The notes beneath the pieces were generated by a model that did no database searches, was not told the origin of the DNA, and worked only from the letters and a program-made list of their open reading frames with translations. This document shows, piece after piece, positions 804-57,022 of a DNA stretch of 64,000 bases (positions are counted from its first letter, which is position 1; each line of letters begins with the position of its first letter). Where the stretch lies: NCBI GenBank assembly GCA_965223265.1, contig OZ244999.1:4896001-4960000 (forward strand), read 5' to 3'. Position numbers and translations under genes: made by a program. This DNA is from Planctomycetota bacterium (lineage in GTDB: Bacteria > Planctomycetota > UBA8108 > SXIK01).

Positions 804-1391
804 ATGCCGCGCTTCCGAGAGTTCGACCTCGACACCGCGCTCGACGCCGCCATGGAGCGGTTCTGGCAACGCGGTTACGAGGCGACGTCGATGGCGGACC
901 TCCTCGAGGCGATCGGCATCCACAAAGGAAGCCTCTACAAGGCCTTCGGCGACAAGCACTCGCTCTACCTGGCGGCGCTCGAGCGCTACCTTGAGCAGAG
1001 CCGTGGAGATCTGAGCGCGGCGTTCACGTCAGCGCCGTCGGCTCGCGAGGCTCTCGGTTGCTGGCTCCGCGAGGTCGCCGAACGGTGCGTCTGTCAGCAG
1101 GCCGCGGCGCGTGGCTGTTTCGCAGTCAACGCAGTGGTCGAGTTGGCGCCACACGACGAAGAGGTCCGCCACGTGCTGCGCCAACACACTGTGGCCGTCG
1201 AGAAGCTCGTAGCGAACACGATCCAACGTGGGCAAGAACGGGGAGAATTCTCCCATCAGCAAAACCCGATACAAATGGCACGATTCCTCGCGACGTTCGT
1301 CTTCGGTCTCAGCGTCCGAGCCAAGGTCGCGCCGCTAAAGCAAAAGGAAGTGAACCAATTGGTTGCGGCGGCGCTTTCATCCCTCTCTTGA
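804..1391 (+). CDS. TetR/AcrR family regulator, NemR/ComR-like
   Basis: HTH ALDAAMERFWQRGYEATSMADLLEAIGIHKGSLYKAFGDK; C-terminal RGCFAVN with four Cys; AGGAG RBS at 791. Confidence 0.92.
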   Translation: MPRFREFDLDTALDAAMERFWQRGYEATSMADLLEAIGIHKGSLYKAFGDKHSLYLAALERYLEQSRGDLSAAFTSAPSAREALGCWLREVAERCVCQQAAARGCFAVNAVVELAPHDEEVRHVLRQHTVAVEKLVANTIQRGQERGEFSHQQNPIQMARFLATFVFGLSVRAKVAPLKQKEVNQLVAAALSSLS

Positions 1392-2000: not shown

Positions 2001-2048
2001 CGTCGCGGCGGACTTCACGTTTGGTGAGGTTTGCTGGTGTGTCGTGTT
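2001..2048 (+). repeat. Dispersed ~48-bp element, second copy at 34816-34862
   Basis: CGTCGCGGC..TCACGTTTGGTGAGGTTTGCTGGTGTGTCGTGT versus CGTCGCGGC..TCACGTTTGGTGAGGTTTGCCGGTGTGCCGTGT. Confidence 0.8.
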
Positions 2049-2054
2049 CCCCCT

Positions 2055-2201
2055 CGCACGCCCACGCCCACGCACACGCACACGCACACGCACACGCACA
2101 CGCACACGGTCACGCACACGCACACGGTCACGGTCACGAACACGGTCACGAACACGGTCACGCACACGGTCACGGTCACGGTCACGGTCACGGCCCACGC
2201 C
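2055..2201. repeat. Compound hexamer microsatellite (CCCACG/CACACG/GTCACG variants)
   Basis: Period-6 tract of about 24 units, directly visible. Confidence 0.95.
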
Positions 2202-2685
2202 CTCGCAATCGCGCACGGTCTTGAGGCGCGCCTCTTTTGCAACGTTGGAGGCAGAGTCGGATCGATCACACTCGCACATTGAGCGACACCTCCAAGTCGT
2301 CGCGAGTGAGCGCGGTTGGGGGGTCTCGATTCCGGCTCAGATCGACCGTGAATCGACGTGAATCGCGGAAGCCTTCAAGCCCCGGGCCAGTCGATCGAGG
2401 CCGATAGACTCTGCAAGCGACGAGTCACGTCACCCCGACATTCTACGAACGACTCGTGCCAAGTTGCGCGGCACTGTTTTTCGATCGTCGCCAACACGAG
2501 GAATCGTCGCGTAAAATGAAACCGGAAGTCGTAGGACCGAGCACGCCAAAAAAACGGACGGGAGCGGGCAAGAAGAGGGAGGCCCAACGTCACGAGTTCG
2601 ACGCGCTCGAATCAGACGTTAAGTTAAGTGTCTTGCACTCGTTTCAAGGCACCAAAGCGAATCGGGCAACTTGAAGGCGGGCCTT

Positions 2686-40148: not shown

Positions 40149-43100
40149 TCACCCACGCTTCGGCTTCGACTTGTCCGGCAGCGGCGGCTTCTCGTGATGG
40201 TTCACCGGCTCGGCGGCGATGCGTGCCTCGAGCTCCGCGATGGCACGGTCGAGCTGTGGATCCCGTCGCGCGCGCCAGTCCTCAGGCAGTATGTCGAGCT
40301 CGATGTCCGGCTCGACCCCACGGTTCTCGAGTCCCCAGCCTTTCTTCGGATGCCACCACGCGAATTCCGGTTGGCTGCTCATGCCTCCATCGATGAAGGC
40401 CTTGTCTCGACGGATGCCGACGACGCCGCCCCACGAACGCATGCCGATCACTGGCCCCAACCCGAGCACCTGGAAACTCTCAGGAAAAATATCGCCGTCG
40501 GAACCAGCGTTCTGGTTCGTCAACACCACCTTGTGGCCGATGTGGACGCGGAATGGATACGTGTAGTCGACTCCGCGCCGCGGCGTCATGTAAGCCCACA
40601 GCGTACGCCGCAGCCGATCAATCACCAGCTGCGAGACGTTGCCACCGCCGTTGTAACGCACATCGATGATGAGGCCAGGCTTCGCGACTTGCGGATAGAA
40701 CGCCTTGGCGAACTCGGTCAAGCCGCGCCCGCTCATGTCAGGTAGGTGGAGATAACCGATGCGACCGCCCGAGGCGCGTTCGACATACTCGCGGTTGCGC
40801 CGCACCCAGTCCCTCAGCCGGAGGTTTCTCTCGTCAGCGAGAGTGTTGATTTGGATGTTGCGTGCGTCGCCGCGGTCTGCAGATAGTCCCACTGTCAAGA
40901 CGACCTCCTGCTCGGCGCGGTTGGCGAGTGCATCGTAGACGTTGGCGCTTGCTGGCAGATCTCTCCCGTCGACGGCGAAAAGATACTCGCCCTCCTGGAC
41001 TCTCGCATGGCTCATGGTGAGCGGCGAACGCACGTCGGTTTCCCACACTTCAGGTCGCAGGATGCGTGCGAAGCGGTGGAGTCCGCTCGCCTCGTCGACT
41101 TCGAGCTCCGCCCCTAGAAGCCCGACGCCCACCCGCCGCGCCTGCTCGAGATCTCCACCTGTGATATACGTGTGCGACGTGCCAAGCTCCGCGAACATCT
41201 GCCCGATGAGGTCATTGAGCTCGTCGCGCGAACCAATCCGCGGCAGCAGAACTTCGTACTTCTTTCGGATGTCGACCCAGTCGACGTTGGCCAAGTTCTC
41301 GGCCCAATAAAAGTCTCGCTGCAGCCGCCAAGCCTCGACGAAAATCTGTCGCCACTCCGCAGAAGGCTCCACTCGCAGCGACAACTCAGAGGGGTCCAAG
41401 GCATCGGCGTCTCGTTCACCCTTCGAGTCCACTCCCTCGACGAGGATCTTTTTGTCGACACGGTAGGCTATGCGCTTGCCATCGCCGCTCAGTGTGTAGT
41501 CAGAAACTCTTTCGGCGCGGACGCTCTCCTCCTTGGCTTTCAGGTCGTAAGCCATGAGGCGATTCTTGGCATCTTTTTCAAACAGCCCACGGCGCCCACG
41601 CATCGGTTGCCGGAGATAAAAGACCTTGTCCGCGGTCGCTCGCAGCGCGCCGTACGCGTCCGCAGCGACGGGAAACTCGACGACGCGGGAGGTAATCCCT
41701 TGAATATCGATTTCAACGGGCGCGACCACCGTTTCCGTCTTCGCGCCACGCTTTGCAGCATCGTTCACCGGATCGGGTGCCGTGTCGGCGTCACTCGCAC
41801 CGTCCTCCAAGAGCTCGTCGGGAAGGAAGGGTGACTTTCCGTTAGCTTGAAGGATCACCGCGCACGGCTTCTCCGTGCGCGTCACGATGAACTGATAGTC
41901 AAGTTCGCCGTGCAGCGGGTTGAACGAGCGCGACGACAGGAAGTAGAGGTAGCGGCCCTTGGGGTCCCACGCCGGACTCGTCTCGCGCGTGAAGTTCGTT
42001 GTCACGGGAAAAGAGTGCTGCTCGCTCATGCTATAGATATGAATCGTGTCGAGCTCGTTCGCTTCCGGCTTAACGTACGCAAGCCAAGCAGAGTCGGGCG
42101 AGAACACGTACTCGCGAATCTCCCAGGCCGCGCTGCGATCGACGAGCTTCGACTCCTTCGTTTGCACATCGACGACGAAAAGACTGAAGGTGTAATCGGC
42201 GTAGGCGATGGACTTGCCGTCGGGAGCCCATGCTGGCCCGAAGACCCACCCTCTGCCGCCATCGGTGATCAGCGTCGGCTCCGAACCTGCGGCAAGATCG
42301 AGGACGGCGATTTCCTGCTCGCCGCTCTGATCCGTCACGTAGGCGATACGCTTCCCGTCGGCAGAAAATACCGGCTCGCGCTCCCGCACCCCCGAGGAGC
42401 GCATGAGTTGGCGACGCCGTCCCTTGTTCGTTCGCACCGTCCAAATCTCGCCGCGCGAGCAGATCGCGAGGTTCTTGCCCCCTGTGTCAAGCACGTAGCC
42501 CTCGACGGTCTTCGACGCGTCTTCGAACCGAGCGTGCTGTCGGACGCGATCGCTCGGAATCTCGATGGGGATCCGCTTCGCCTCGCCACCGCGAGTCGAT
42601 GTAATCCACAGGTCGCCGCCGAGCATGTAGACGATCCGGTCGCCGTTCAGGTCTGGCCAGCGGACGTCGTAATCAGTGTGATGGGTCACGGCTTCGACGC
42701 CGCCGCCATCGACGCCCATGCGGTAGAGATTCATCGTGCCGCTTCGGTCCGACGCGAAGTAGATTCGCTCCCCGTGCCACATCGGAAAGCGGTCGGTCCC
42801 TTTCCAGTCCGTGAGGCGCGAAAAGGTGCCGCTTTCGAGGTCGCCGACCCACACATCTTGCGCACGTCCGCCGTAGTAACGTTTCCAGTTGCGAAACTCG
42901 CGCGAGAAACGATTGAACGCGAGGCGACGGCCGTCGGCGGCGAAACTCACCAGCGCCGCAGGTCCGATGTCGATCGGTTCGGGATGACCACCTGCAGCCG
43001 CAACACGAAAGAGACGAAGCTCACGAGCATTCGAAGCGCGTGAGCTTCGAAAGACAACCGATTCGCCGTCGGCACTCCAGGCAACGACCTCGTCGCGCGC

Positions 43101-43445
43101 GGGATGGAACGTCAGTCGACGCGGCTCGCCGCCGTCAATCGGCATGACGAAAACGTCGCGGTTGCCGTGGTAGTCCCCTGAAAAAGCGATCAGCTTGCCC
43201 GCCGGGTGAATCTTCGTGAACAGCTCACTGCCGTTGTGCGTCGTGAGACGAAGCGCGAGTCCACCTGAAGCCGCGACGCGCCAGAGATCACCCTCCGCCG
43301 CAAAGACGACGGTGTCGTCGTGGATCGCTGGAAAACGGTAGTACCCCTGCACCGCGGAAATAAGCGGCGAGTTTGCTGCGAGCAGCAACACAAGGGCGCA
43401 CCAAAACCGGGTTTTTCGACACAACTTTCGCACGGCTGTGGCCAT
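40149..43445 (-). CDS. Tricorn protease homolog (S41)
   Basis: GYYRFPAIHDDTVVFAAEGDLW, PD40-like propellers, SHTY, PDZ-like segment, DVRYNGGG, GSDGD, RSWGGVVG, GVEPDI. Confidence 0.95.
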   Translation of the reverse strand: MATAVRKLCRKTRFWCALVLLLAANSPLISAVQGYYRFPAIHDDTVVFAAEGDLWRVAASGGLALRLTTHNGSELFTKIHPAGKLIAFSGDYHGNRDVFVMPIDGGEPRRLTFHPARDEVVAWSADGESVVFRSSRASNARELRLFRVAAAGGHPEPIDIGPAALVSFAADGRRLAFNRFSREFRNWKRYYGGRAQDVWVGDLESGTFSRLTDWKGTDRFPMWHGERIYFASDRSGTMNLYRMGVDGGGVEAVTHHTDYDVRWPDLNGDRIVYMLGGDLWITSTRGGEAKRIPIEIPSDRVRQHARFEDASKTVEGYVLDTGGKNLAICSRGEIWTVRTNKGRRRQLMRSSGVREREPVFSADGKRIAYVTDQSGEQEIAVLDLAAGSEPTLITDGGRGWVFGPAWAPDGKSIAYADYTFSLFVVDVQTKESKLVDRSAAWEIREYVFSPDSAWLAYVKPEANELDTIHIYSMSEQHSFPVTTNFTRETSPAWDPKGRYLYFLSSRSFNPLHGELDYQFIVTRTEKPCAVILQANGKSPFLPDELLEDGASDADTAPDPVNDAAKRGAKTETVVAPVEIDIQGITSRVVEFPVAADAYGALRATADKVFYLRQPMRGRRGLFEKDAKNRLMAYDLKAKEESVRAERVSDYTLSGDGKRIAYRVDKKILVEGVDSKGERDADALDPSELSLRVEPSAEWRQIFVEAWRLQRDFYWAENLANVDWVDIRKKYEVLLPRIGSRDELNDLIGQMFAELGTSHTYITGGDLEQARRVGVGLLGAELEVDEASGLHRFARILRPEVWETDVRSPLTMSHARVQEGEYLFAVDGRDLPASANVYDALANRAEQEVVLTVGLSADRGDARNIQINTLADERNLRLRDWVRRNREYVERASGGRIGYLHLPDMSGRGLTEFAKAFYPQVAKPGLIIDVRYNGGGNVSQLVIDRLRRTLWAYMTPRRGVDYTYPFRVHIGHKVVLTNQNAGSDGDIFPESFQVLGLGPVIGMRSWGGVVGIRRDKAFIDGGMSSQPEFAWWHPKKGWGLENRGVEPDIELDILPEDWRARRDPQLDRAIAELEARIAAEPVNHHEKPPLPDKSKPKRG

Positions 43446-43656
43446 GGGATCGGCGCTCCGAACTGCCTTCGCTCGCAAGAGATGTGAATCACTTCTGACA
43501 CCAATCTACACGCTTTGAAGTGGCGCTGCGACGGTTCTACGAAAATGGGTCTGCGGTGCTGGTGGCTCGTTCGCGCAGTGACTTGTGAGGCCCAACGCCT
43601 CGCGGTTCTCCCGAATCACCTCTAAATCACTTCCCGCCACCAAAAAGGAGTCACCC

Positions 43657-46600
43657 ATGCAGCCCAAACAATCCCCTCACCAACCAGGCACACCTCTTTC
43701 GCAAAGCACTTGTGTCTCACGCTCTCTCTACGTTCTCGTCTGCGCCTGCGGTCTCGCCGCCGCCCAGCTTGCTGTCGGCGCCGAGCGGGTTGACTACTAT
43801 GTTCCCAACAGCGTCAGGATCGACGTCGAGGCGAGTGGCGGCGGCAGCGCTGCCTGGCAGCTCGTCAGCGAACGAGACACTGACGGCCGATGGATCGTTG
43901 ACGACGCCTTCTGGCGCCCTGCGAGCTATACCGAGACGAACGTGCCTCCCGGGTGCTACGGCGTCGTCTTTCGCGCCGCACCCGGTTGGAGCCCACCTGC
44001 GGAAATGAGGCTCGAGCTCACGGGCGGTGAAGAATTCTCGCGCACCGTGTCGCTCGCCAAAGTGCCAGAATACGTCGTCGGAGAAATCCCGCCACTTTCA
44101 GTCCGGCACGGTGAGACGCTCCGGTTCGCGATCGAGTCGTTCGACGCCAACCTCGAGTTTGAGCCGCACCCGGACGTCGAGCGCGACATCACGTTCGACG
44201 GTCGCGTCTTCGCGTACACACCGAGCCCTGCTGAACGCGTCGCGTTCACGGTAACGCTGACGCTCAGCTCCGGAGTCGAACAGACGATCGCCGTGGCGCC
44301 CACCGCCGAAACGCAGCCAGAGCAGACCATCTTGCAGTACCGCGGCGACCTTGTCGATGCAGAAGCGAAAACCTATCTCAAGGTGATCGAGGAAGACCTC
44401 GGCGAGGAAAACTTCAACTACCGAACAAGGAACGTTCGCAGAGTCGTGATCTCCGGACCGACTGTGGTGTTCGAAGCCGGTCACGAAAACGACCTCTACA
44501 CTCTCTACGCCGATGGCGTCGACGACATCAAGGAGATGGAAATCTACGCCGACACCGTCGTCTTCCGCAGTCCCACCCGTCTCCAAGGGACGACGGTATC
44601 GATCTTCGCCAGGCAGCTGCGCTTCGAGGATCTCGGAGAGGAACCGGCCTCCCTTAGCACCGTCCCTGCGGAGATCTCCACGACCTCGAACTCTGACGGC
44701 GCGCATGGCCTTCCCGCCGGCGACGTCACCCTCAACGTCGCCAGCATGGTCGCACCAGGTTCGGATCCGCGGTTGATCCTGCGCGGCGGTGAGGGTCAAG
44801 ACCCACATCCGGGCGCCGACGGCGGCAGCTGGCCGTCGCTCTCGTGGTACAGCGAGCCGGACGGTCATTCTAACGGTTGGCCCACGAGCGGTGTGGTCAC
44901 GTATGTCAAGCAGAAGTCAACCTGTGGTCCGCTGGACTCGAGGACAGACGACTGGGGCACAACTGCTTGCCCGAAGAACGGCAAGAATGCCGTCGCGGCG
45001 AAGGTGCCCGGCGATGGTGGAGCAGCGGGGAGATTGAGTGTGCCTTTCGGCGTCGATTCGAGCATCGTCGACATCCGCGGGGGCAATCCGGGGAAGGACG
45101 GCCCTGACCGCTTCGGCGGCCGTGCGCAGGGACCGAGCAAGGTCCACCACGTCTACCGAGTGTGCGCCCTGAAGTACGAGTTTCCCATCTCATGCCGCGG
45201 GATTTCCTCGTGTGACAACTGGAGCATTACGAAGACCTGCCCGACGCCCAAAGACGGCGTCGACCAGCCCGGCACCTTTGGCTCGCCAGGCGTCGACGGA
45301 ATCGTGGAAGGTACAACCGCGATCGATGGCTGGCTGCAACCGGTGACGATTCGGACGCTCCTGCAATACGCCAAAGATGTGTACCTCAACGGGCACGTCG
45401 ATGCCGTCGCGACGATCTTGGCGCCTTACGACACAGCCCTCGCCAAAGTCGCAACGGACGGGGAGAGTTCTATGGAGCTCGTGCAGCTGGCGCAGGAAGT
45501 GAACACGCTACGGCATCGCGCCGCTGGGCACCTTGACTACTTCGGCAACCCCGCTGGTTGGGTGCCGATGCTGTCGTTCGAAGTCACGCGCGATCTGTTC
45601 GAGGACGAGGTCCAAGCTGCTGGCAACCTTCTCTACCTGACGTACTACCTGGGTGGCGAGATCGAAGGTGTCACCAACAAGCAGGCCGCGTTGAGTCGGC
45701 TGCGCGCCGAGCTTTGGGAAGAGATCGCCGCGTTCGAGTCCGAACTCGAGGAGCGTCGCTATGAGATCGAGGACTTGGCCGACGAAGCGGAAGCCATCGA
45801 CTCGGAAATCCGCGATCTCGGTCGCGACCTCAAGGCCCGTGCCGAGAATCTGCGCGAACAGGCAAAGCGAAACGCTGCGCTCAAGAAGTCGCTACGAGTC
45901 ACCGGGACGGTGTTGACGTCAATGCCAATCGGTCAACCGGCGCTCGGTCTTACGGGTATCGGCCTAACGTCCGCGTCGAAGTTCAATGAGGAAGACCCGA
46001 TCGACAGCGCCATCAATGGCACCAACGCAGCACATGAATTCCTCATGGCACAGATGCACCAGGACATGGAAGACTTCCAGACGGTGAGTGGTGCCGGTGA
46101 TCCGCGGCTCGGAGCGGCGATGCTGGCGCGGCAGAAGTCGATCCAGAGCCTCGACGCTGGTGTCGTCGGGGTCAACCAAGTCCTCCGGGAGGCGAAAAGC
46201 TGGGACAGCGACGTCGACGCCGAGGTGAGTCTGCTCATGTCAGAAGACCCACGTTCGAAGCAGCTCGTCGGAGCAATTCGAGAGCTCAACGTCCGCAAAC
46301 AGCGCTTCGTTGAAAGAATGGCCGCCGCAGTGCAGCGAGCGAAGTTTCTCATGACCAGCATCAATCAAGACTACCTTGCGCTCGACAGCCTGCAAAGAGA
46401 CCTGGTCGCTGTCACCGAAAAGATCGACCAAGAAGCATTCAGCTACATCAAAGAGATCGAACGCCGCGCCAAAGACCGCTTGCTCAAGTACCAGTACTAC
46501 CTCGCCAAGGCGTTCGAGTACCGCACGGTGCGACCATATGTCGGCAGCTTCCAGCTGGGCCGTATCTACGATTTCTTCGCTGACAACTTCACCAACACGA

Positions 46601-47853
46601 TCTCCGAGGTTCCGGGGGAGGCGATTCTCGATCCCGCGTCACTGATCGCGGTCTACGACGAGGAACTACGTACGATCACCGATGCGATCGTCGACGACCT
46701 TGCGCAGCGCCCACAAGAGCAGACGCTCCCGATCTTCTACACGCTCAGTCAAGAAGAGCTCGCACAGCTCAACACGCCGCCCTACTCGGTCAACCTCAAC
46801 CTGGTCGAGGTCGGCGCCGTCTTCAGTCGCACGCAGGAGAATCTGCGCATCTCCGAGCTCAAGGTTGAATCAGTGGCGGCGGCACCGCGCAGTGGAGCGA
46901 ACCGTGCGAACCTATCGATACTCCTTCAACACTCCGGTGTGTCGTTGATCTCGTCGGAGGGCGATACGTACAAATTCCACCACTACAACACCCTCGAGAC
47001 GCCGCCGATCACGTGGGAAGCGCAGTTCTCACCGTTTACGGGAGACCTGACGAACACCGAACCGAGCGAGGCGAGCCGCTCCCTTCTCAAGTCGCTCATC
47101 GGCGACACCGACGATCTCCTCCTCTACTCGCGGCCATCGGCCTGGGCGGACCTTCTCGTCACGAAGGAGACGCTTTCCGACTCCGTCGACATGGTGGTCA
47201 ACGAACTGACGCTGCGGGTCAGCGTTGACTTCGCTCGCAAGTCGAGCGGCCAATCAGACCTGGAGGTGAAGCCGGTGAACGCGGCAGGAGAAACGCTCGC
47301 GGCACGCGTGGCGCTCGGAGCCGCCGACCAGAACCGGCGACAGGATGGACGCGGGATCTTCACACGCGTCTTTCGCGCCGGTGAACGCGTCGAGCTCGAA
47401 GCATCCGCGTCCTACGGTTCGCAGGTGTTCGATCGCTGGGAATCACGCAGCGGAGAGCTTCTCGGCACCGAGCCGCGTCTCTCCGTGACGCTCCCGACGT
47501 CCCCGAACGGATCGGCGACGACTGCTAAGGTGCGGGCTGTCTACGCTCCCGGCGAGCTCGTCCCAGGCGGCGGCGACACGCCCTTCCGACGCGGCGACGC
47601 GAACACGGACGGTGGAGTCGACATGAGCGACGCGATCGCGATCCTCAACCGGCTCTTTGTCGGCGGTTCCGAACTGCCGTGCGAAGACGCCAGTGACACC
47701 AACGACGACGGTCGGGTCGATATCTCCGACCCCATGAACCTTCTTCTCCACCTCTTCGTCAGCGGTTCAGCGCCGCCAGCGCCACACGACGCCTGCGGCG
47801 AAGACCCAACCGACGACGGTCTCGATTGCGACGCGTTTGCTCCGTGCAGCTAA
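43657..47853 (+). CDS. Large secreted protein with Gly/Cys-rich region, long coiled-coil core and C-terminal dockerin-like module (possible TcA-like toxin)
   Basis: AAGGAG RBS; signal peptide; LDYFGNPAGWVPMLSF; heptad-rich helices flanking hydrophobic GTVLTSMPIGQPALGLTGIGL; FRRGDANTDG tail. CDS is solid, function is inferred. Confidence 0.8.
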   Translation: MQPKQSPHQPGTPLSQSTCVSRSLYVLVCACGLAAAQLAVGAERVDYYVPNSVRIDVEASGGGSAAWQLVSERDTDGRWIVDDAFWRPASYTETNVPPGCYGVVFRAAPGWSPPAEMRLELTGGEEFSRTVSLAKVPEYVVGEIPPLSVRHGETLRFAIESFDANLEFEPHPDVERDITFDGRVFAYTPSPAERVAFTVTLTLSSGVEQTIAVAPTAETQPEQTILQYRGDLVDAEAKTYLKVIEEDLGEENFNYRTRNVRRVVISGPTVVFEAGHENDLYTLYADGVDDIKEMEIYADTVVFRSPTRLQGTTVSIFARQLRFEDLGEEPASLSTVPAEISTTSNSDGAHGLPAGDVTLNVASMVAPGSDPRLILRGGEGQDPHPGADGGSWPSLSWYSEPDGHSNGWPTSGVVTYVKQKSTCGPLDSRTDDWGTTACPKNGKNAVAAKVPGDGGAAGRLSVPFGVDSSIVDIRGGNPGKDGPDRFGGRAQGPSKVHHVYRVCALKYEFPISCRGISSCDNWSITKTCPTPKDGVDQPGTFGSPGVDGIVEGTTAIDGWLQPVTIRTLLQYAKDVYLNGHVDAVATILAPYDTALAKVATDGESSMELVQLAQEVNTLRHRAAGHLDYFGNPAGWVPMLSFEVTRDLFEDEVQAAGNLLYLTYYLGGEIEGVTNKQAALSRLRAELWEEIAAFESELEERRYEIEDLADEAEAIDSEIRDLGRDLKARAENLREQAKRNAALKKSLRVTGTVLTSMPIGQPALGLTGIGLTSASKFNEEDPIDSAINGTNAAHEFLMAQMHQDMEDFQTVSGAGDPRLGAAMLARQKSIQSLDAGVVGVNQVLREAKSWDSDVDAEVSLLMSEDPRSKQLVGAIRELNVRKQRFVERMAAAVQRAKFLMTSINQDYLALDSLQRDLVAVTEKIDQEAFSYIKEIERRAKDRLLKYQYYLAKAFEYRTVRPYVGSFQLGRIYDFFADNFTNTISEVPGEAILDPASLIAVYDEELRTITDAIVDDLAQRPQEQTLPIFYTLSQEELAQLNTPPYSVNLNLVEVGAVFSRTQENLRISELKVESVAAAPRSGANRANLSILLQHSGVSLISSEGDTYKFHHYNTLETPPITWEAQFSPFTGDLTNTEPSEASRSLLKSLIGDTDDLLLYSRPSAWADLLVTKETLSDSVDMVVNELTLRVSVDFARKSSGQSDLEVKPVNAAGETLAARVALGAADQNRRQDGRGIFTRVFRAGERVELEASASYGSQVFDRWESRSGELLGTEPRLSVTLPTSPNGSATTAKVRAVYAPGELVPGGGDTPFRRGDANTDGGVDMSDAIAILNRLFVGGSELPCEDASDTNDDGRVDISDPMNLLLHLFVSGSAPPAPHDACGEDPTDDGLDCDAFAPCS

Positions 47854-47983: not shown

Positions 47984-49504
47984 TCAACCCGACGAGCCCG
48001 TCTCGCTGCGCTCAGGCAACGGGTGTTTCCCCGCTTCCTCGCGAAGCGAGTCGACGCTTGCAGTCGCTCTGAGGTATTCACACAAGATCCCGACGTTGTC
48101 GACGAACGCTTTGGTGAACACGATCGGTTGACGTTCGCCTCCGCGCTTGAAACGCCCGAGCCGCACCCAGCGCCCGCGGTCGTCCAGAGTGTCGATTGTA
48201 CGCCGCACCTGTCGCTCGAAACGACGCCAGGCCTGCCCATCGAGACGTTCATCACGGCGCGGCAAAGCATGAGGTCCACGTGCTCTCAGCGCGGCATACT
48301 GCGCTTCGATTCCATCAAGCCGACTCGTCACCTTGAAGTCGTAATGCTCGGGCATATCGCCGTCGTCATACGTCAGCTCATAGTCATGCGTGAAGTAGAG
48401 CGGCCGATTCGTCCGCAGCTCGTTGAAACGAGGAATGCGGCCACTCGGGAGCTCACAGCGACGCAAATACGCCAGAGCTCTCGGCAGCGGTTCGAGAAAA
48501 CGCTCTTCGCCTGTCCGCCGGTAGAGGAGCAGGAGAGTCTCGAGAACCGTTTGAGATTCGCGCCCCGAGATGGCAGGCGGTTCAAAGCGGCGCGCCCACG
48601 CCGGATGCATTGCCGCGTCGTACTGCTGCGCCCACGCGGGCTGCGGTTCGGGCATTTGTGCGAGAAGGATGAAGTCACCCGCCTTCTCTGCGGTGCTCGC
48701 GTACTCAGCTCGATCATACACCTGCGCGGCTTCGAGAAAGAGAGTGATCGTCGCTGGAATGGCTCGATCATTGAACGTGTAGTGCGACCAGTAGGAAGCT
48801 CCTTGATAGGTCCGCGACCAAACCTCTGGGTACGATGCTCTGAGGACGGCAGATCGAGGCGACGGTGCGGTACCGTCGTAGCGCTGCGGCCAGGCGCCGT
48901 TCGGAAACTGCGCCTTGGTCAACTGTGCGAGACCATACTCGACCGCCTCATGAATCGCCTCGTCCTGAAATCCGAGAAGCTGATCGATCCGCATGAGGAA
49001 CTGAAACGCCCGTTGAGTCGTTCGGTCGTCGAGAACCGTCGTGTTTGCGCCTCCAGGCGTGGAGTTGACGCGATAGTTGTGAAGAGGTCGACGCCGCGGA
49101 TCAAGCTCGATGCGGTAGTGCCAGCCACCCGACCGCAGCTGCCCACGGATGAGGACCTGCGCGGTTTCGCGCGACGCTTCAAGGTAGCGAGGGTCGCGAA
49201 CGACCTCGTACGCCTCAAGGTAAGCAAATCCGACGCTGGGAGTCGCTGGCGGCTGCACTGTCACCTCGGTGGGCCCTCCCTTGCCCTCCCCTTGACGCAC
49301 TGACAAATCCGCTGCGTACTTGTAGACGTAGCCGCCCTCGTCGGCAACTTCGCTGCGGAAGAAGTCAATGGCACGCCTGAGCGCGTCGAGAGCGTCTCGG
49401 CGCAGCTCAAGGTCGCGGGCGTGCAAACACGGCATGCAGACCAGCCAAATAGTTCCAAACGCACAGCCAACGGCCAGGGAAACCGCACTTCTCTGTTCTT
49501 TCAC
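47984..49504 (-). CDS. Pectate lyase PL10-like (pectic acid lyase family) secreted protein
   Basis: LDDRTTQ, AQFPNGAWPQRY, YTFND, PAWAQQYD, ARRFEPPAISGRES. Confidence 0.8.
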   Translation of the reverse strand: MKEQRSAVSLAVGCAFGTIWLVCMPCLHARDLELRRDALDALRRAIDFFRSEVADEGGYVYKYAADLSVRQGEGKGGPTEVTVQPPATPSVGFAYLEAYEVVRDPRYLEASRETAQVLIRGQLRSGGWHYRIELDPRRRPLHNYRVNSTPGGANTTVLDDRTTQRAFQFLMRIDQLLGFQDEAIHEAVEYGLAQLTKAQFPNGAWPQRYDGTAPSPRSAVLRASYPEVWSRTYQGASYWSHYTFNDRAIPATITLFLEAAQVYDRAEYASTAEKAGDFILLAQMPEPQPAWAQQYDAAMHPAWARRFEPPAISGRESQTVLETLLLLYRRTGEERFLEPLPRALAYLRRCELPSGRIPRFNELRTNRPLYFTHDYELTYDDGDMPEHYDFKVTSRLDGIEAQYAALRARGPHALPRRDERLDGQAWRRFERQVRRTIDTLDDRGRWVRLGRFKRGGERQPIVFTKAFVDNVGILCEYLRATASVDSLREEAGKHPLPERSETGSSG

Positions 49505-49838: not shown

Positions 49839-51149
49839 ATGGCCCAGTCACGTTCCCTGAACCGCCGCCAGTTTCTCGGTCACGCCGCAGCAATCGCCGC
49901 CGCGCCGTACGTCATTCCGCGCCGCGTCTCCGCTCGCCCCAGTGCAAGCGAACGCCTCACCGTAGGTCTCATTGGCGCCGGCAAGCGCGGCGGAACGTTG
50001 CTGCGAAAGACGCTCAAGTTTGACGACGTTCAAGTCGTCGCGGTCGCCGAATGCGAGAGTCAACGGCGCGAGCACCGCGCAAACATGGCGGATGAGGTCT
50101 ACGCCGCACAGACCGAAAGCGGCAAGTTCAAGGGCTGCGCGCAGTACAACGACTTTCGCGAACTTCTCGAGCGCAAGGATATCGACGCAGTCATCATCGC
50201 GACGCCCGATCACTGGCACGCAATCCCTGTCGTCGAAGCCGCCAAGCGTGGCAAAGACATCTACTGCGAGAAGCCGCTGACGCTAACGATCCATGAAGCA
50301 AAGATGATGATCGACGCCGCGGCGAAGTACGGGGTCATCCTGCAGACTGGCAGTCAGCAACGCTCTGAATGCGGCGGACGGTTTCATCGCGCCTGCGAGC
50401 TCGTCAGGAACGGGCGCATTGGCAAGGTTAAGGAAGTCTACGTCAACGTCGGAGGTCCCTCCCGCCCTTGCGATCTTCCCGAGATGCCCACGCCCGAAGG
50501 TACGGACTGGGACCTTTGGTTGGGACCGGCACCGAAGCGTGGGTACCACGAACGGTTGTGCCCGCGCGGCGTCCACAATCACTTCCCGGCGTTTCGAGAG
50601 TACAAGGAGTACTCGGGTGGCGCCATGACCGATTGGGGCGCACACCACTTCGACATCGCACAGTGGGGACTGAACCGCGACGCCAGCGGCCCGGTCGAGA
50701 TCATCCCACCCGACGGCAAGGACTACCCACACCTGACGTACAAATACGACGACGGTGTCGTCGTCCACCATACGAGCAAGTGCGGTGATGAGGACGTCAA
50801 CGGCGTTCGCTTCGTCGGTAGCGACGGTTCGATCGAGGTCAACCGCAGCCATCTCAAATCGTGGCCGGACAAGATCCTCACCGAAGAAATCGGGGAAAAC
50901 GAGACACGGCTCTACAAGGTGCACGACCATCTCCGCAACTGGGTCGACTGCATTCGCAGCCGTAAGCAACCCATCTGTAACGCGGAAATCGGTGCACGCT
51001 CGGTGACCGTTTGTCACCTCGGCAATCTCGCCTATTGGAACAAGCGGCCGCTGAAATGGGATCCCATCAAGTGGGAGTTCCCCGGCGATGCCGAGGCGAA
51101 CGGCTGGCGCGATCGTCCGCGGCGCGATCCCTGGAAACTCACATTGTGA
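49839..51149 (+). CDS. Gfo/Idh/MocA oxidoreductase, Tat-exported
   Basis: NRRQFL; GLIGAGKRG; TPDHWH; YCEKP; DWDLWLGPAP; DWGAHHFD. Confidence 0.92.
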   Translation: MAQSRSLNRRQFLGHAAAIAAAPYVIPRRVSARPSASERLTVGLIGAGKRGGTLLRKTLKFDDVQVVAVAECESQRREHRANMADEVYAAQTESGKFKGCAQYNDFRELLERKDIDAVIIATPDHWHAIPVVEAAKRGKDIYCEKPLTLTIHEAKMMIDAAAKYGVILQTGSQQRSECGGRFHRACELVRNGRIGKVKEVYVNVGGPSRPCDLPEMPTPEGTDWDLWLGPAPKRGYHERLCPRGVHNHFPAFREYKEYSGGAMTDWGAHHFDIAQWGLNRDASGPVEIIPPDGKDYPHLTYKYDDGVVVHHTSKCGDEDVNGVRFVGSDGSIEVNRSHLKSWPDKILTEEIGENETRLYKVHDHLRNWVDCIRSRKQPICNAEIGARSVTVCHLGNLAYWNKRPLKWDPIKWEFPGDAEANGWRDRPRRDPWKLTL

Positions 51150-54100
51150 CGAAGCTTCTCGTCGCGGCGGTGCCCCCGTCGAATACGACCTACAGTCGAA
51201 CCCATTCGGGAAGACCAAGCACGCGAGTGCGAGGTCAGCTCATGGCGGGTGTCTGGGCGTTTCTCGCGGCGCTTTCAGGGAGTACCCCACAGCTCGGTGC
51301 GCAAGTCGTCATCAACGAGATCCTGGCGCTCAACTACCGCTCCATCACCGACGAAGACGATGATCTTTCCGACTGGATCGAACTGCTCAACACTGGATCC
51401 GCCGCGGTCGACCTCGCCGGATACAGTCTCACCGACGACGAACACCAGCCGCGCAAGTGGATCTTTCCAACGCGCGTGCTGCGGCCAGGTGATCGTACCC
51501 TCGTCTGGTGCTCGGGAAAGGACAGGGTTCACTTGGATCCTGATCGTGTCCGCGACAAGAAGTTGAAGTTTAGCCCCACGCTCATCTCACTGGCGTCCCC
51601 ATGGCACGTCTTGGCCGGTTTACCGAACGAGACTGGACCGCCGGTCGGGTGGGAGACGCCAGACTTCGACGATACGAGCTGGACAAGCGGTCCAGCCGGC
51701 ATCGGATATGGAATCGAGGGCGTCCAAACGGAAGTTCCCGAAGGATCGACGGCGGCGTTTCTTCGCACTTCGTTTCGCTTAGACAGCGAGTTTACCTTAC
51801 CGAATCTGGTCTTTCAGACACGGTTCGATGACGGCTTCGCGCTGTTTCTCAACGGCGAACGCGTTCTCAGTGTCAACGTGCGTGACGGAGATGAGCTGAC
51901 GTTCGCCAGTCGATCGCTGCGCTCCAGCAACCCACACTTGACGATCCGCTACGATCTGACCGAGTCAATGAACCTGCTGAGACCTGGCGAAAACGTCGTC
52001 GCCATCGCTCTATTGAATCTTCGCGAGACGAGCATCGACATGGCGATTTTTCCGGAGCTCGGCAGTGTCGAACAGGCGCTCCACACGAACTTTGGGCTGT
52101 CGAGAGACGGAGACGAGGTCTATTTGGTCGACCCTATGGGTAGGCTGCAAGACGGTGTCGAGTTCCCCGCGCAAACGCGCGACCAAACGTACGCACGGTC
52201 TCCGGACGGGTTCGGATCGTTCTTCTTTCATCTGAATCCAACCCCCCTCATGCCAAACGTCGGGCCGATCGCAGAAATGGCACTGACGACAAGATCGCCG
52301 ACGGCGAGCGAAACGCGTGGATTCTACACGGAGCCGCTTCTCGTCGAGCTGTCGACCGACGAACAAGGGGGCGAGATCCGGTACACTCTCGACGGACGGG
52401 ACCCGACGACAGCGGAGTCTTTGATCTACAGCGTCCCTATCCTGATCGATCGCACGACCGTGTTGCGGGCGGCCACGCTTCGCGTCGGTTCGGCACCTTC
52501 CCTTCCAATCACTCAAACGTATCTCTTCGTCGCCGACATCGCTGGTCAGCCAGCAATGGACCCGAGGATCACCGAGATCGAACGCTATCAAGACGAGATC
52601 GCGCCGGCGCTGACAGCCCTCCCGACTGTTTCTATAGCGACGTCGCAAGAGATCGCCGCGGACCGGGAAGTCGACGCCTCGATCGAACTGCTCGACCCAA
52701 ACGGCGAGCTGGAGTTTCACATCGACGCTGGCGTGCGCTACGTCGGCGGCCATTCCATTGGCTTTCCAAAGAAGAGCATGCGGCTCTTCTTTCGTGGCCG
52801 CTACGGAACCTCCACGCTCGATTATCCAATTTTCGCAGACACCAAATATGGCGAAGGTGCAGCCACGTCCTTCGATCAGCTGCAGCTTCGATCCGGCTCT
52901 CACGATTCCGTCTTCTACCTGGGATCCGCGCAGCAAAGCCCCGCCGACGCCCAGTACCTTCGCAATCGCTGGATGTCCGACATGCAGTTTGAGATGGGGC
53001 ATCTCTCCATTCACGGACGTTTCGTGCACGTCTACCTCAACGGCACGTATTGGGGGCAGTACCACCTCATGGAGCGACCGACGGCGAGCTTCATGGCGTC
53101 CTACGCCGGTGGCAACAAGGAAGACTACGAAGCCGTCAATTCAGGCCGCGGCTTGGGTGAATCAGCTCCGATCTGGGAGAGCGTGCGAACGCTCCGCGAA
53201 AACTACGCAGAGCTATCGCGGCGTATCGATTTCGAAAACTTCGCCGACTACATCCTGCTCAACTTCTATGCAGGAAACGACTGGGACTGGAATCCCAACC
53301 AAAACTGGATGGCGGCCGGGCCGACACGCGTCGATCGCGGTGGATACAAGTTCTTCGCCTGGGACTCGGACATCATCTTCCGACGTACGCGCGACCACAA
53401 CCTCAACCGCGGTGGGCCCGAGAACCTACTTCGTTCTCTGTTCGAAAACGAAGAATTCCGCGTTCTCTTCATGGATCAAGCTCACGCCCTATTCTTTAAC
53501 GACGGCGTGCTGACTCCGCAGAGAGTCGAGGACTCCTATCTCGATCGTGCGAAGGAGATTCGCATGTCGATCGTCGCCGAGACCGCTCGGTGGCAAAACG
53601 GTATGTTGTGGACACGTGACATCAATTGGCTTCGCGAACTCGAGCGCCTGCGCACCGAGTTTTTTCCGCAACGGACGGCCATCGTCGTCGATCAGCTCCA
53701 ACGTGCGGGGTGGTATTCGGCTGTCGAGGCGCCGGTATTCGTGCCGCAGCACGGCGGCGTGATCGACGCGGGGTTTGTCGTCTCCCTCACATCCATCGGC
53801 GGTGAAATCTATTACACCCTCGACGGCACAGACCCGCGGCTGACCGACGGCAGCATTTCGCCGCAGGCCCGGCTCTATCGCGTACCCCGCTCCGTAGTTG
53901 TCGACTCCCGAAGTCCGGCGCGAATTCTCGTGCCAACCGATGAGAGTCTCGGTCTCACCTGGACTCAACCCGACTTTGTCGACTCGCATTGGCTGGCGGG
54001 TTCCGCCGCGGTCGGCTACGAACTCGACAGCACTTACGACGAATTCATCGAAACAGACCTCGAAGCACAAATGAAGGATCGGAGCACGTCGGCCTACATC

Positions 54101-55318
54101 CGCATTCCATTCACGGTCGACGACGTCGAAAACGTCGTGCGCCTGACGCTCGCCTTGCGACTCGACGATGCTTTTGTCGCCTACCTAAACGGAGTCCGCG
54201 TTGCCTCACGAAATGCGCCAGAGGACCCGAGATGGGACTCCCAAGCACGATTCACGCCACCGGATCAAACCGCATCGATTCTGCAGCGAATGGAACTGGA
54301 AGATGCCGTCCCTGCGCTCCTCCGTGGCCGCAACGTTCTGGCAATTCATGGCATCAACCGCCGTACGAACGACCGCGATTTTCTCATTGTTCCCCAGCTT
54401 GCACGAGAGGACTCTTCGGGCGATGCTTTCGCTCTCGACGTGACAACTCGCGTCCGTGCGCGGACGATCCTCGATGGCGAGTGGAGCGCACTGACCGATG
54501 CGACATTCGCCATCCCATCGCCCCTACGGGTGACCGAGATCATGTTCAACCCCGCGCCTCCGACGCTCATCGCTGGCGCCCTCGACGCGCAGCAGTTCGA
54601 GTTCGTCGAACTGCAGAACGTCAGCGAAACCCCCTTCGACCTCGCCGGCATGTATGTCGGAGGTGGGATCGAATTCTCGTTCGCTGACGCCCCCGTCCAC
54701 GAACTGTTGCCCGGCGAATTCGTCCTCCTGGTCAAGAACTTCGATGCCTTCTCGCAGCGTTACGACACTCGTGGGATGACAATTGCTGGTGAATACGCCG
54801 GCAAGCTCAACAACGACGGCGAATCGTTCTCTCTCGTCGGACCGGGCGATGCCGTCTTCGCGAACGTTTCCTTCGACGAATCGTGGTTTTCGGAGACTGC
54901 AGGCGAGGGATACTCGCTCGTGCTGCGCGAAGATGTTCGACCGCCGATCGCCTTTGGCAAGCAGAGCAGCTGGCGACCGAGCGACTTGATCCACGGTTCG
55001 CCCGGACAGAACGACCGCGCGCCGCCCCCGTTCGGCTGGCAAATCCCTGGAGATCTCGACCAAAGCGGCCGTCTCAACGTCTCCGATGCGATCGCTCTGC
55101 TGCGAGTCTTCACGCAGCCGTTCCCAACCCTGCCATGCGGCGACGATCTCGACACGATCGGCCATCGACAGCTCCTCGACCTGAACTCCGACCAAACGCT
55201 CGACCTTGCAGACGGCGTTTTCATGCTGAGCTATCTCTTTCAGCGCGGACCTGAACCGCGGCTGGGGACAAGCTGTCAACCGCTGGCGGGCTGTCCGAAC
55301 CTTTGTGCGGGCGGGTGA
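51146..55318 (+). CDS. Lamin-tail-domain/CotH kinase protein with Fn3-associated domains and divergent dockerin-like tail
   Basis: VVINEILA..DWIELLN; IRYTLDGRDP and IYYTLDGTDP; KKSMRLFFR, VHVYLNGTYWGQY, DWDWNPNQNW, FFAWDSD; PGDLDQSGRLNVSDAI...DLNSDQTLDLADGV; GTG overlaps upstream TGA (alternative start 51242). Confidence 0.85.
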   Translation: MTKLLVAAVPPSNTTYSRTHSGRPSTRVRGQLMAGVWAFLAALSGSTPQLGAQVVINEILALNYRSITDEDDDLSDWIELLNTGSAAVDLAGYSLTDDEHQPRKWIFPTRVLRPGDRTLVWCSGKDRVHLDPDRVRDKKLKFSPTLISLASPWHVLAGLPNETGPPVGWETPDFDDTSWTSGPAGIGYGIEGVQTEVPEGSTAAFLRTSFRLDSEFTLPNLVFQTRFDDGFALFLNGERVLSVNVRDGDELTFASRSLRSSNPHLTIRYDLTESMNLLRPGENVVAIALLNLRETSIDMAIFPELGSVEQALHTNFGLSRDGDEVYLVDPMGRLQDGVEFPAQTRDQTYARSPDGFGSFFFHLNPTPLMPNVGPIAEMALTTRSPTASETRGFYTEPLLVELSTDEQGGEIRYTLDGRDPTTAESLIYSVPILIDRTTVLRAATLRVGSAPSLPITQTYLFVADIAGQPAMDPRITEIERYQDEIAPALTALPTVSIATSQEIAADREVDASIELLDPNGELEFHIDAGVRYVGGHSIGFPKKSMRLFFRGRYGTSTLDYPIFADTKYGEGAATSFDQLQLRSGSHDSVFYLGSAQQSPADAQYLRNRWMSDMQFEMGHLSIHGRFVHVYLNGTYWGQYHLMERPTASFMASYAGGNKEDYEAVNSGRGLGESAPIWESVRTLRENYAELSRRIDFENFADYILLNFYAGNDWDWNPNQNWMAAGPTRVDRGGYKFFAWDSDIIFRRTRDHNLNRGGPENLLRSLFENEEFRVLFMDQAHALFFNDGVLTPQRVEDSYLDRAKEIRMSIVAETARWQNGMLWTRDINWLRELERLRTEFFPQRTAIVVDQLQRAGWYSAVEAPVFVPQHGGVIDAGFVVSLTSIGGEIYYTLDGTDPRLTDGSISPQARLYRVPRSVVVDSRSPARILVPTDESLGLTWTQPDFVDSHWLAGSAAVGYELDSTYDEFIETDLEAQMKDRSTSAYIRIPFTVDDVENVVRLTLALRLDDAFVAYLNGVRVASRNAPEDPRWDSQARFTPPDQTASILQRMELEDAVPALLRGRNVLAIHGINRRTNDRDFLIVPQLAREDSSGDAFALDVTTRVRARTILDGEWSALTDATFAIPSPLRVTEIMFNPAPPTLIAGALDAQQFEFVELQNVSETPFDLAGMYVGGGIEFSFADAPVHELLPGEFVLLVKNFDAFSQRYDTRGMTIAGEYAGKLNNDGESFSLVGPGDAVFANVSFDESWFSETAGEGYSLVLREDVRPPIAFGKQSSWRPSDLIHGSPGQNDRAPPPFGWQIPGDLDQSGRLNVSDAIALLRVFTQPFPTLPCGDDLDTIGHRQLLDLNSDQTLDLADGVFMLSYLFQRGPEPRLGTSCQPLAGCPNLCAGG

Positions 55319-55498
55319 GCCACACGATCTCGCCCGAACCGAGCCGTTACGCCCGTAATTCAGCGAACTCTCAGCAGTTGCTGACTTTTCAAGTTTTCGA
55401 CTGCGGTCCTCTCTCCCTGATTGCGCAGGAAGTGTTGCGGCGACGACGTGTCGCCACTTGTCCACCTGCCTGGCAATACCGAAGAAAGGACCCCTGCC

Positions 55499-57022
55499 AT
55501 GACTCGCCCCCGTACTCAAACCACGATCTCCCCAGTCGTCGCAATCGTCGCTCTCCTCAGCGGTGCTTCGCATGCAACCCTCGACGCGCAGTGCTTCCCG
55601 GATCCGATCGCGATCGAGCTACCGAACTACGCGCCGGCGGTGGGAGGCTGGAGCGTCGCAAACCATCCGCGCCTTCTCGGTGACGTCGACGGTGACGGCC
55701 TCGACGACATCGTCGGCTTCGGCAACGCTGGCACTTACGCCTCATTTTCTTCCGGCGAAGCGTTCTCAGCTCCGTCTCGGATCATCGACGGTTTCGGGTA
55801 CAACAACGGCAGCTGGCGCGTGACGAAGAACCCGCGCATGCTCGGCGACATCAACGGTGATGGCCGGTTAGACGTCGTCGGCTTCGCCAACGCTGGAGTT
55901 GCCGTGTCGTTTTCCACCGGACGCAGCTTCACACCGCTCAAGGTTCTGGTCAAAAGCTTCGGCTATGACGCTGGAGGCTGGCGCGTCGGAAGACACCCAC
56001 GCATGCTGGCGGACGTCGACGGCGACGGCATGGATGACGTTGTCGGCTTCAGCTCAGCTGGAGTCGATGTCTCGTTCTCGCAAGGAGAGACGCTCAACGC
56101 CCCCCAACGTCTCATCGACACCATCTTCGCCTCCTCCACGTGGCTCGTCAGTCGCCATCCTCGGATGCTCGGAGACGTCAACGGCGACGGCAAAGACGAT
56201 GTCGTCGGCTTCGCTGATAACGGCGTTTGGATCGCTCTTTCGAGCGGACGCGTCTTTCAAGCTCCAAGGCACGTCTCGTCGGCGTTCGGACGCGTGTCCG
56301 GTGGTTGGCAGGTGAGTCATCACCCCCGCATGCTCGCCGACGTCGACGGTGACGGCAAAGACGACATCGTCGGCTTCGGGACCGCCGGCGTCTACGTCGC
56401 GTTCTCCACGAGCACCGTATCGGAAGTGTCTGTCGAACGACCGAGACTCATGGTCAACTCCTTCGGCTACAAGCACGGTTGGCGCGTCGCAAGCCATCCT
56501 CGCTTCATGGCCGACGTGAACGGTGACGGCAAAGCAGATGTGGTTGGGTTCGGAAACGCCGGCGTCCACATCGGCCTCTCTGTGGGGAACCGATTCACTG
56601 CGCCGCTCTTTGCGGTCCAGGGGATGGGCGCGAACGCCGGCAACTGGAAGATCGACAGACACCCGCGCATGCTCGCCGACGTCAACGGCGACGGCCGCTC
56701 TGACATTGTCGGTTTCGCCGAGGCTGGCGTTGTCGCACTCCGTTCCCGCGACTGCCCGGAGTTTCGGCGCGGCGACACCAACGACGACGGCGAGCAAACG
56801 ATCGACGACGTCCTCAACCTTCTCACAGGCGACGGAATCGTTTGCGACGACGCAGCCGACGTCGACAACGACGGTGCCGTGACGGTGAGCGACGCCGTTC
56901 TCTTGATCAACGTGCTCTTCAAAGACGCTGACCCTCCTGCGGGGTATCGCATCTGTGCTCCGGATCCGATCGAACCGGTCGATTTCCTCGGCTGTGACGC
57001 ACACAGCAGCTGTTCCGAGTAA
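55499..57022 (+). CDS. Seven-bladed PVL-like (FG-GAP/VCBS) beta-propeller lectin with dockerin-like tail
   Basis: Seven repeats of W.V..HPRMLADV.GDG..D(I/V)VGF; signal peptide; FRRGDTNDDG tail; AAAGGA RBS. Confidence 0.85.
   Translation: MTRPRTQTTISPVVAIVALLSGASHATLDAQCFPDPIAIELPNYAPAVGGWSVANHPRLLGDVDGDGLDDIVGFGNAGTYASFSSGEAFSAPSRIIDGFGYNNGSWRVTKNPRMLGDINGDGRLDVVGFANAGVAVSFSTGRSFTPLKVLVKSFGYDAGGWRVGRHPRMLADVDGDGMDDVVGFSSAGVDVSFSQGETLNAPQRLIDTIFASSTWLVSRHPRMLGDVNGDGKDDVVGFADNGVWIALSSGRVFQAPRHVSSAFGRVSGGWQVSHHPRMLADVDGDGKDDIVGFGTAGVYVAFSTSTVSEVSVERPRLMVNSFGYKHGWRVASHPRFMADVNGDGKADVVGFGNAGVHIGLSVGNRFTAPLFAVQGMGANAGNWKIDRHPRMLADVNGDGRSDIVGFAEAGVVALRSRDCPEFRRGDTNDDGEQTIDDVLNLLTGDGIVCDDAADVDNDGAVTVSDAVLLINVLFKDADPPAGYRICAPDPIEPVDFLGCDAHSSCSE

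Follow-up and report, generated by a model that had tools for sequence, protein, structure and literature searches.

The window analysed here is a stretch of 64,000 nucleotides (nt) from the genome of a Planctomycetota bacterium (contig OZ244999.1, positions 4,896,001 to 4,960,000, forward strand; G+C ~62%), and the subject of this report is one of its genes, at 43657..47853 on the plus strand. An earlier note on this DNA had read the product as a secreted, dockerin-tagged, stand-alone protein with the layout of the channel and TcB-binding domain of TcA, a subunit of the Tc toxins. Tc toxins have been studied as insecticides and as protein-delivery machines, and so far this channel has been described only in TcA proteins, which are ~2500 amino acids (aa) long and work with TcB-TcC. 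The predicted structure bears the proposed layout out, with TcA chains at Foldseek ranks 1-20 and 22 and a collinear structural alignment. On our best reading, the product would be an alpha-helical protein that stands alone, is presented at the cell surface, inserts into membranes and has a TcA-type pore module; we give this reading an even chance of being right. Its predicted domain order is signal peptide, two immunoglobulin (Ig)-like domains, Gly-rich beta-solenoid, three-helix neck, TcA-like module, repeat domain and dockerin-like tail.

The gene and its locus

The gene occupies a single intact open frame (43585-47853, +). ATG 43657 is the likely start, with a ribosome-binding site, AGGAG, legible in the sequence at 43646..43650 (+), 6 nt before it, and the coding region to 47853 (+) comprises 1398 aa and a stop. 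The gene is single copy in its own genome (9.18 Mb, one contig). All motifs quoted in the earlier note are indeed present in this one intact gene: LDYFGNPAGWVPMLSF at residues 626-641 (nt 45532-45579), GTVLTSMPIGQPALGLTGIGL at residues 750-770 (nt 45904-45966), YQYYLAKAFEY at residues 945-955, SRPSAWADL at residues 1158-1166 and ELTLRV at residues 1183-1188. The six-cysteine insert was likewise correctly described, since C423, C438, C503, C513, C519 and C528 lie within Gly-rich stretches in which 40-residue windows reach a Gly fraction of 0.18-0.22.

Upstream, a divergent gene (40149-43478, -) encodes a tricorn-type protease (PD40, Tricorn_C1, PDZ_Tricorn, Peptidase_S41), and downstream a convergent gene (47984-49504, -) is pectate-lyase-like. 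As both flanking genes lie on the minus strand, the TcA-like gene is monocistronic.

Predicted structure of the core

An AlphaFold2 model of residues 555-1205, built from an 81-row alignment with no templates (predicted local distance difference test, pLDDT, 81; predicted template modelling score 0.81), places three short helices, a non-helical junction, very long helices and a beta-sandwich of ~175 residues in that order. The three short helices form a neck at residues 562-623 (45340..45525, +; model helices 8-23, 27-46 and 52-69), which is followed by the junction motif LDYFGNPAGWVPMLSFE at residues 626-642 (45532..45582, +), the most conserved stretch of the family, whose aligned counterpart in TcA is the beginning of the pore domain. 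The long-helix domain spans residues 639-1016 (45571..46704, +) and is classed as TcA-pore-like on its model helices and on the Foldseek and VIA matches to TcA given below. Within it lies a hydrophobic Pro/Gly tip at residues 748-770 (45898..45966, +), bordered by basic residues at one end and by acidic ones at the other. No other 19-residue window of the core is as hydrophobic (mean Kyte-Doolittle value across the family 1.19), and P757, Q760, P761 and G767 within the tip do not vary among 25 sequences. In the model the helical hairpin passes directly into the beta-sandwich, as in TcA, and this sandwich, at residues 1020-1194 (46714..47238, +; model strands 468-640), is a predicted jelly-roll that stands where TcA has its TcB-binding domain.

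When the monomer model was compared with the Protein Data Bank (PDB) by Foldseek, a check that the earlier note had suggested against TcdA1, TcA chains (TcdA1, YenA2, XptA1/2, TcdA4 and TcaA-TcaB) headed the list: they took ranks 1-20 and 22, with E-values between 1.5e-7 and 3.7e-5 and a probability of 1.00. Behind them came botulinum neurotoxin and NTNH (E 6.6e-4 to 2.6e-2, probability 0.08-0.5). VIA aligned model residues 81..640 with YenA2 856..1344 and model residues 74..639 with TcdA1 2010..2516, collinearly throughout. The limits given for YenA2 in the domain description of PMC6486591 are 813-861 for the linker, 862-1170 for the pore and 1171-1343 for the TcB-binding domain; the match therefore runs from the linker-pore junction to the end of the TcB-binding domain.

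The packing of the helices also bears on a different reading, namely that the protein is a pore-former of the ClyA/Hbl/AhlB type, whose collapsed bundle hides a hydrophobic head and would unfold and oligomerise on a membrane, the jelly-roll being an addition. In the monomer model the long helices indeed pack as a bundle and not as the extended hairpin of TcA, and the long-helix domain taken as a rigid body also matches AhlB-type and generic four-helix bundles. The only ClyA-type sequence family to appear was NCBIfam MakB, at residues 672-787 (E 0.022), a faint match whose 14.1 bits fall far under the cut-off of 240. Among Foldseek ranks 1-50 listed, however, no chain of the ClyA family appears. 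ClyA-type toxins usually come as two- or three-gene sets and do not carry a C-terminal jelly-roll, whereas no such set is present at this locus, and we regard this reading as improbable.

Further searches with the model gave results of other kinds. Capsid jelly-rolls in the viral library match the beta domain (Foldseek E about 1e-3), and the best structural match overall is BFVD A0A481Z1I0 (Foldseek E 4.6e-12, 708 columns), an uncharacterised protein of 1032 aa labelled Mimivirus LCMiAC02. This protein probably belongs to the present family and stems either from a giant-virus bin or from a mis-binned bacterial contig. A three-copy complex prediction (core residues 320-645) scored 0.01 against a mark of 0.42, which, as the run had no controls, is evidence neither way.

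Relation to TcA proteins

Several observations weigh against the proposed relationship with TcA. At the level of sequence, the protein has no Pfam match to PF18276 at E <= 1 and matches no TcA family in Pfam or NCBIfam; a genome-wide PF18276 scan misses this locus and yields a single match, at an unrelated locus (E 0.41); the 56 PDB sequence matches of the family's hidden Markov model (HMM) at E <= 10 include no TcA; and a comparison by hhalign of the family profile with 11 TcA C-termini reaches a probability of only 3.1% (P 0.014). At the level of structure, global superposition on TcA is poor (TM-score 0.19-0.23, root-mean-square deviation 49-61 A), the hydrophobicity of the tip is moderate (the family mean given above; median per-sequence maximum 1.33) and the tip region is modelled with low confidence (pLDDT <50 at model residues 204-221). 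The alpha-helical shell, the neuraminidase-like domain and the receptor-binding domains of TcA are lacking according to Pfam and a model of the N-terminus, and Ig-like and beta-solenoid domains stand in their place. At the level of the locus, no TcB/TcC gene lies nearby, and clustering of neighbouring open reading frames (ORFs >=120 aa, blastp E <= 1e-8) across 70 related loci revealed no conserved partner or immunity-like neighbour; since only ORFs of at least 120 aa entered the clustering, a short immunity gene may have been missed.

The alignments with TcA, weak as they are, agree on where the two proteins correspond. The TcA reference was obtained by scanning 401 gammaproteobacterial genomes with PF18276; 14 matched (3 are unpublished and were otherwise unused), and 11 C-terminal fragments were aligned. 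In the hhalign comparison, the family's KYHYYMAKAYEYR...EENxRIVDL is paired with YxLA...GHYxRRIKS of TcA. The paired stretch starts where the return helix ends, reaches the first beta strands and is structurally equivalent in the two. At a lower mact setting the alignment became collinear over 587 columns with a score still at 31.8 and no added significance. Of 300 family sequences, 8 were matched by an HMM of the TcA C-terminus (E <= 0.02), with all 8 alignments beginning in the descending helix (HMM positions 303-328); the four primary alignments inspected (P0107, P0098, P0190 and P0086) extend to the tip, where PVxQPALG of the family is paired with the tip of TcA. When the search was run in the opposite direction, 2 of the 11 TcA fragments were matched (E <= 0.01), again in this region. 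A Pfam scan of 62 core fragments at E <= 1 returned coiled-coil-type noise, foremost DUF1664 (22/62), and PF18276 was not among the best 25 of 247 families. As such, sequence homology with TcA appears marginal and not significant, yet consistently in register.

A widespread and unnamed family

In Pfam and NCBIfam the body of the protein matches no family, only coiled-coil noise; the family core is without a Pfam model, and the family is unnamed. No description of it was found in the literature searched, in which some queries were poorly targeted and which did not extend to subscription journals, and a Protein Atlas search with this protein gave no usable match. Relatives are nevertheless plentiful. 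A word-indexed protein search returned 160 at E <= 1e-3, and a core-profile search based on the 62 core fragments, run against 1.84 billion clusters at 50% identity, recovered at least 1402 representatives at E <= 1e-3, with 840 at E <= 1e-30. Among one-genome-per-species contigs, 196 stretches encode a relative, and their record titles name Planctomycetota, Verrucomicrobiota, Bacteroidota, Chloroflexota and Hydrogenedentota as hosts, further Sumerlaeia, Gemmatimonadota, Lentisphaerae and some Gammaproteobacteria such as Paraglaciecola. The isolates among these loci are Haloferula chungangensis and two strains of Paraglaciecola. Family members at L015, L032 and L064 sit on contigs titled Bathyarchaeia archaeon or Bifidobacterium sp., unexpected hosts that suggest mis-binning or gene transfer.

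Conservation is distributed unevenly along the core. In an alignment of 62 family sequences, columns at least 90% conserved make up 15 of 17 in the junction motif LDYFGNPAGWVPMLSFE, 5 of 23 in the hydrophobic tip, 6 of 33 at the end of the return helix and 21 of 175 in the beta domain; the first and second long helices have 2 of 65 and 1 of 99, respectively. Because they are the most conserved columns of this alignment, the motifs quoted in the earlier note are not chance. Across 25 sequences, H1092, S1096, H1109, W1120, S1142 and P1160 (46930-47140) are invariant in the jelly-roll; a docking role would not account for the two His and two Ser among them.

The unit conserved family-wide corresponds to about residues 140-1300, and the N-terminal extensions and C-terminal tags differ. 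Of 120 listed relatives, 4 carry a dockerin and 6 a type IX secretion system (T9SS) C-terminal domain as tag, and other domains found in relatives are lectin, laminin-G, Ig, beta-helix, cadherin-like and FG-GAP. Such variable flanking domains and tags fit a secreted or surface protein.

By ORF coordinates, at least two family genes appear to lie side by side in L019, L029, L035, L044, L051, L059, L064, L066, L069 and L078, where split frames are possible, and one Limisphaerales metagenome-assembled genome holds three separate family loci (L066, L067 and L073). If real, such arrays of several copies would be in keeping with a surface or toxin family that is diversifying.

Domains outside the core

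The N-terminus, residues 1-42 (43657..43782, +), reads as a signal peptide, as had been claimed, on sequence features alone: a basic R22, a hydrophobic stretch at 24-40 and then AVGA/ER. The N-terminal model (pLDDT 93) continues with two Ig-like domains, the first CnaB/prealbumin-like at residues 45-137 (43789..44067, +) and the second at residues 140-219 (44074..44313, +), and with a Gly-rich beta-solenoid that encloses the six cysteines at residues 231-557 (44347..45327, +). Beyond the beta-sandwich, residues ~1205-1300 (47269..47556, +) form a conserved repeat domain, probably of the InlB-B-repeat type, in which D1224, R1228, G1233, R1237, G1254, F1258, W1261 and G1266 are invariant; 14 of the 120 relatives listed bear a PF18998 annotation, and the repeat domain of this protein has no Pfam match.

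The protein might also be a passive surface stalk or adhesin, in which the long helices would be a rigid spacer projecting the Ig-like and solenoid domains, and the likeness to TcA would be convergent. Ig-like domains and a beta-solenoid here, and lectin, laminin-G, cadherin-like and FG-GAP domains in relatives, are typical of adhesins, and the helical segments resemble coiled coils and show little conservation. Botulinum neurotoxin, in which helices also precede a jelly-roll, was matched as well (E about 1e-3), so that Foldseek evidently rewards this general order. A spacer does not explain, however, the near-invariant hydrophobic Pro/Gly tip and the 17-residue junction motif; the TcA matches are better than the next architecture by about four orders of magnitude; and two sequence alignments, weak but independent of each other, keep the TcA register. 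A passive stalk is a possible but unlikely account of the protein.

The tail, residues 1313-1360 (47593..47736, +), is a dockerin-like candidate with a sub-threshold match to PF00404. The dockerin claimed earlier is recognisable in a match to the CelS dockerin among PDB sequences (E 0.008) and in two DxNxDGxVD loops at residues 1313-1320 and 1347-1355, but Pfam Dockerin_1 did not endorse it: its cut-off of 22.9 bits was reached neither when the protein was scanned (19.5-20.3 bits) nor when the whole genome was (21.6 bits). The same genome contains at least 137 Dockerin_1 matches at E <= 0.01 (150 of 481 candidates scored), and the tail is therefore a common tag of the organism's secreted proteins. 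Cohesin matches above the Pfam cut-off number 3.

Among the 137 dockerin matches, 32 fall in open frames of 1794-1917 aa, which looks like a large paralogous expansion of odd architecture; in one such frame (L103:2617-8061, 1814 aa), nine FG-GAP repeats occur together with a PPDK_N ATP-binding domain, and a dockerin lies at the C-terminus. Within the window, a gene at 51011-55318 (+), downstream of the TcA-like gene, encodes a protein of 1435 aa in which LTD, chitobiase-C and CotH kinase domains occur, and the gene after it, at 55421-57022 (+), encodes a 533-aa FG-GAP protein with a dockerin-like C-terminus.

Neighbours and possible partners

The description of the protein as stand-alone, without TcB/TcC, agrees with the locus data: no such gene is nearby, and no neighbour is conserved in the 70 related loci. 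The commonest neighbour clusters are two-component proteins (9/70), sulfatases (6/70) and phage-tail-collar-domain proteins (5/70). Proteins of the last kind (PF07484) adjoin the family gene in four Bacteroidota-labelled loci, and one Gemmatimonadetes locus has three tandem copies (L025:7906-8841, L021:650-1729, L037:2140-3126, L047:1051-2070 and L077:12276-14449; Pfam-confirmed in three, E 5e-11 to 2e-23). The flanking genes of the present locus, tricorn protease and pectate-lyase-like, recur in 0/70 related loci (tblastn E <= 1e-5). The earlier note was thus right that the divergent upstream gene is of the tricorn type, but the functional tie it suggested is rejected on this absence.

Partners might also be encoded elsewhere in the genome. 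One could then imagine a true translocon that docks an unlinked cocoon of RHS/YD-shell proteins and passes a toxic domain, the partners being joined by dockerin tags. The beta domain is placed where TcB docks on TcA, the 3 cohesin matches could serve such a junction, and RHS repeats are matched 45 times in the genome, in 10 or more large open frames, none of them nearby. One of its proteins, of 2105 aa (L102:2987-9304; ~1.582-1.588 Mb of the genome), is teneurin-like, with TTR, NHL propeller and YD-shell/RHS domains, and thus combines a cocoon architecture of the TcB/TcC type with a tag like that of the TcA-like protein, its N-terminal dockerin match being weak (20.6 bits). RHS proteins are common in these phyla, however, and their presence in the genome therefore carries no weight. 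The genome, which is 91.65% complete, has no SpvB match and only weak TcdB_toxin_midN matches, in FG-GAP-type repeat proteins; no RHS gene is a conserved neighbour in the 70 related loci; and the repeat domain and anchor that follow the beta domain might cover the docking face. We consider a translocon of this kind very unlikely.

Proposed mode of action

The data are compatible with a model in which the surface-presented, membrane-inserting protein proposed above acts alone, without involvement of a TcB-TcC cargo cocoon. The dockerin-like tail, and other tags in other phyla, would keep the protein on or near the surface of its producer, and the Ig-like and solenoid domains may bind a target. 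Subsequently, multiple copies could assemble via their long helices, and the hydrophobic tips would enter a foreign membrane to form a pore or lesion. In TcA, the jelly-roll is the end far from the membrane (structural account of PMC6486591); with the anchor located beyond the jelly-roll in the present protein, the tip would thus point away from the producer.

A more far-reaching and doubtful version joins these elements into a minimal, shell-less Tc channel that is widespread in free-living Planctomycetota, Verrucomicrobiota, Bacteroidota and further environmental phyla, is anchored to the surface by its top end through dockerin, T9SS or other tags, and pierces neighbour or prey membranes with its tip on contact. 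Such a channel might represent the ancestral state of Tc toxins, and it might dock dockerin-tagged teneurin-like YD-shell proteins.

If true, the TcA reading would widen the known distribution and architecture of the channel by a family of at least 1402 clusters and would offer a small model for the assembly and insertion of helical channels without shell or spring. It would also point to an unrecognised way for abundant environmental bacteria to attack or adhere to other cells.

Comparison with known systems

Three groups of known proteins invite comparison. The first are the toxins of the ClyA family (ClyA, AhlB/AhlC, MakA, SmhA, Hbl/Nhe and XaxB), which match the model no better than designed four-helix bundles do and have no jelly-roll after the bundle; here, a single gene is found, and the module lies inside a multidomain protein of 1398 aa. 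The second are botulinum neurotoxin and NTNH, which have in common with the present protein the general order of a long helical hairpin, their translocation domain, and then a jelly-roll, HCN. Their E-values are weaker than those of TcA by about four orders of magnitude, and their protease domain has no counterpart here.

The third group, TcA itself, is the closest, and differences as well as likenesses are evident. Strict membership of the TcA family is not supported, as it fails on the sequence signature, on the shell and receptor domains and on linkage to TcB/TcC. Unlike TcA, the protein has no detectable PF18276 (TcA_TcB_BD) signature, carries an added C-terminal repeat domain and anchor tag, has no TcB/TcC genes nearby and is ~1400 aa long compared with roughly 2500 aa for TcA chains. 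The linker between shell and pore in TcA is described as unstructured and ~47-49 residues long (PMC6486591); the segment before the first pore helix here is non-helical and conserved, with only ~15 residues (model 70-84), and there is no shell to link. The hosts differ: TcC proteins were assigned to Proteobacteria (96.4%) and Firmicutes (3.2%) by Song et al. 2021 (PMC7861908), the main text of which contains no word beginning with Planctomyc-, Bacteroid- or Verrucomicrob-, whereas the present family occurs in Planctomycetota, Verrucomicrobiota, Bacteroidota and others. Taken together, what the protein has in common with TcA subunits is the order and predicted fold of the C-terminal pore apparatus, collinear over its whole length in the model. 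In both, a conserved junction leads into a long helix that descends to a hydrophobic tip rich in Gly and Pro; a second long helix returns from the tip and is followed by a jelly-roll, which measures ~175 residues here and 173 in YenA2.

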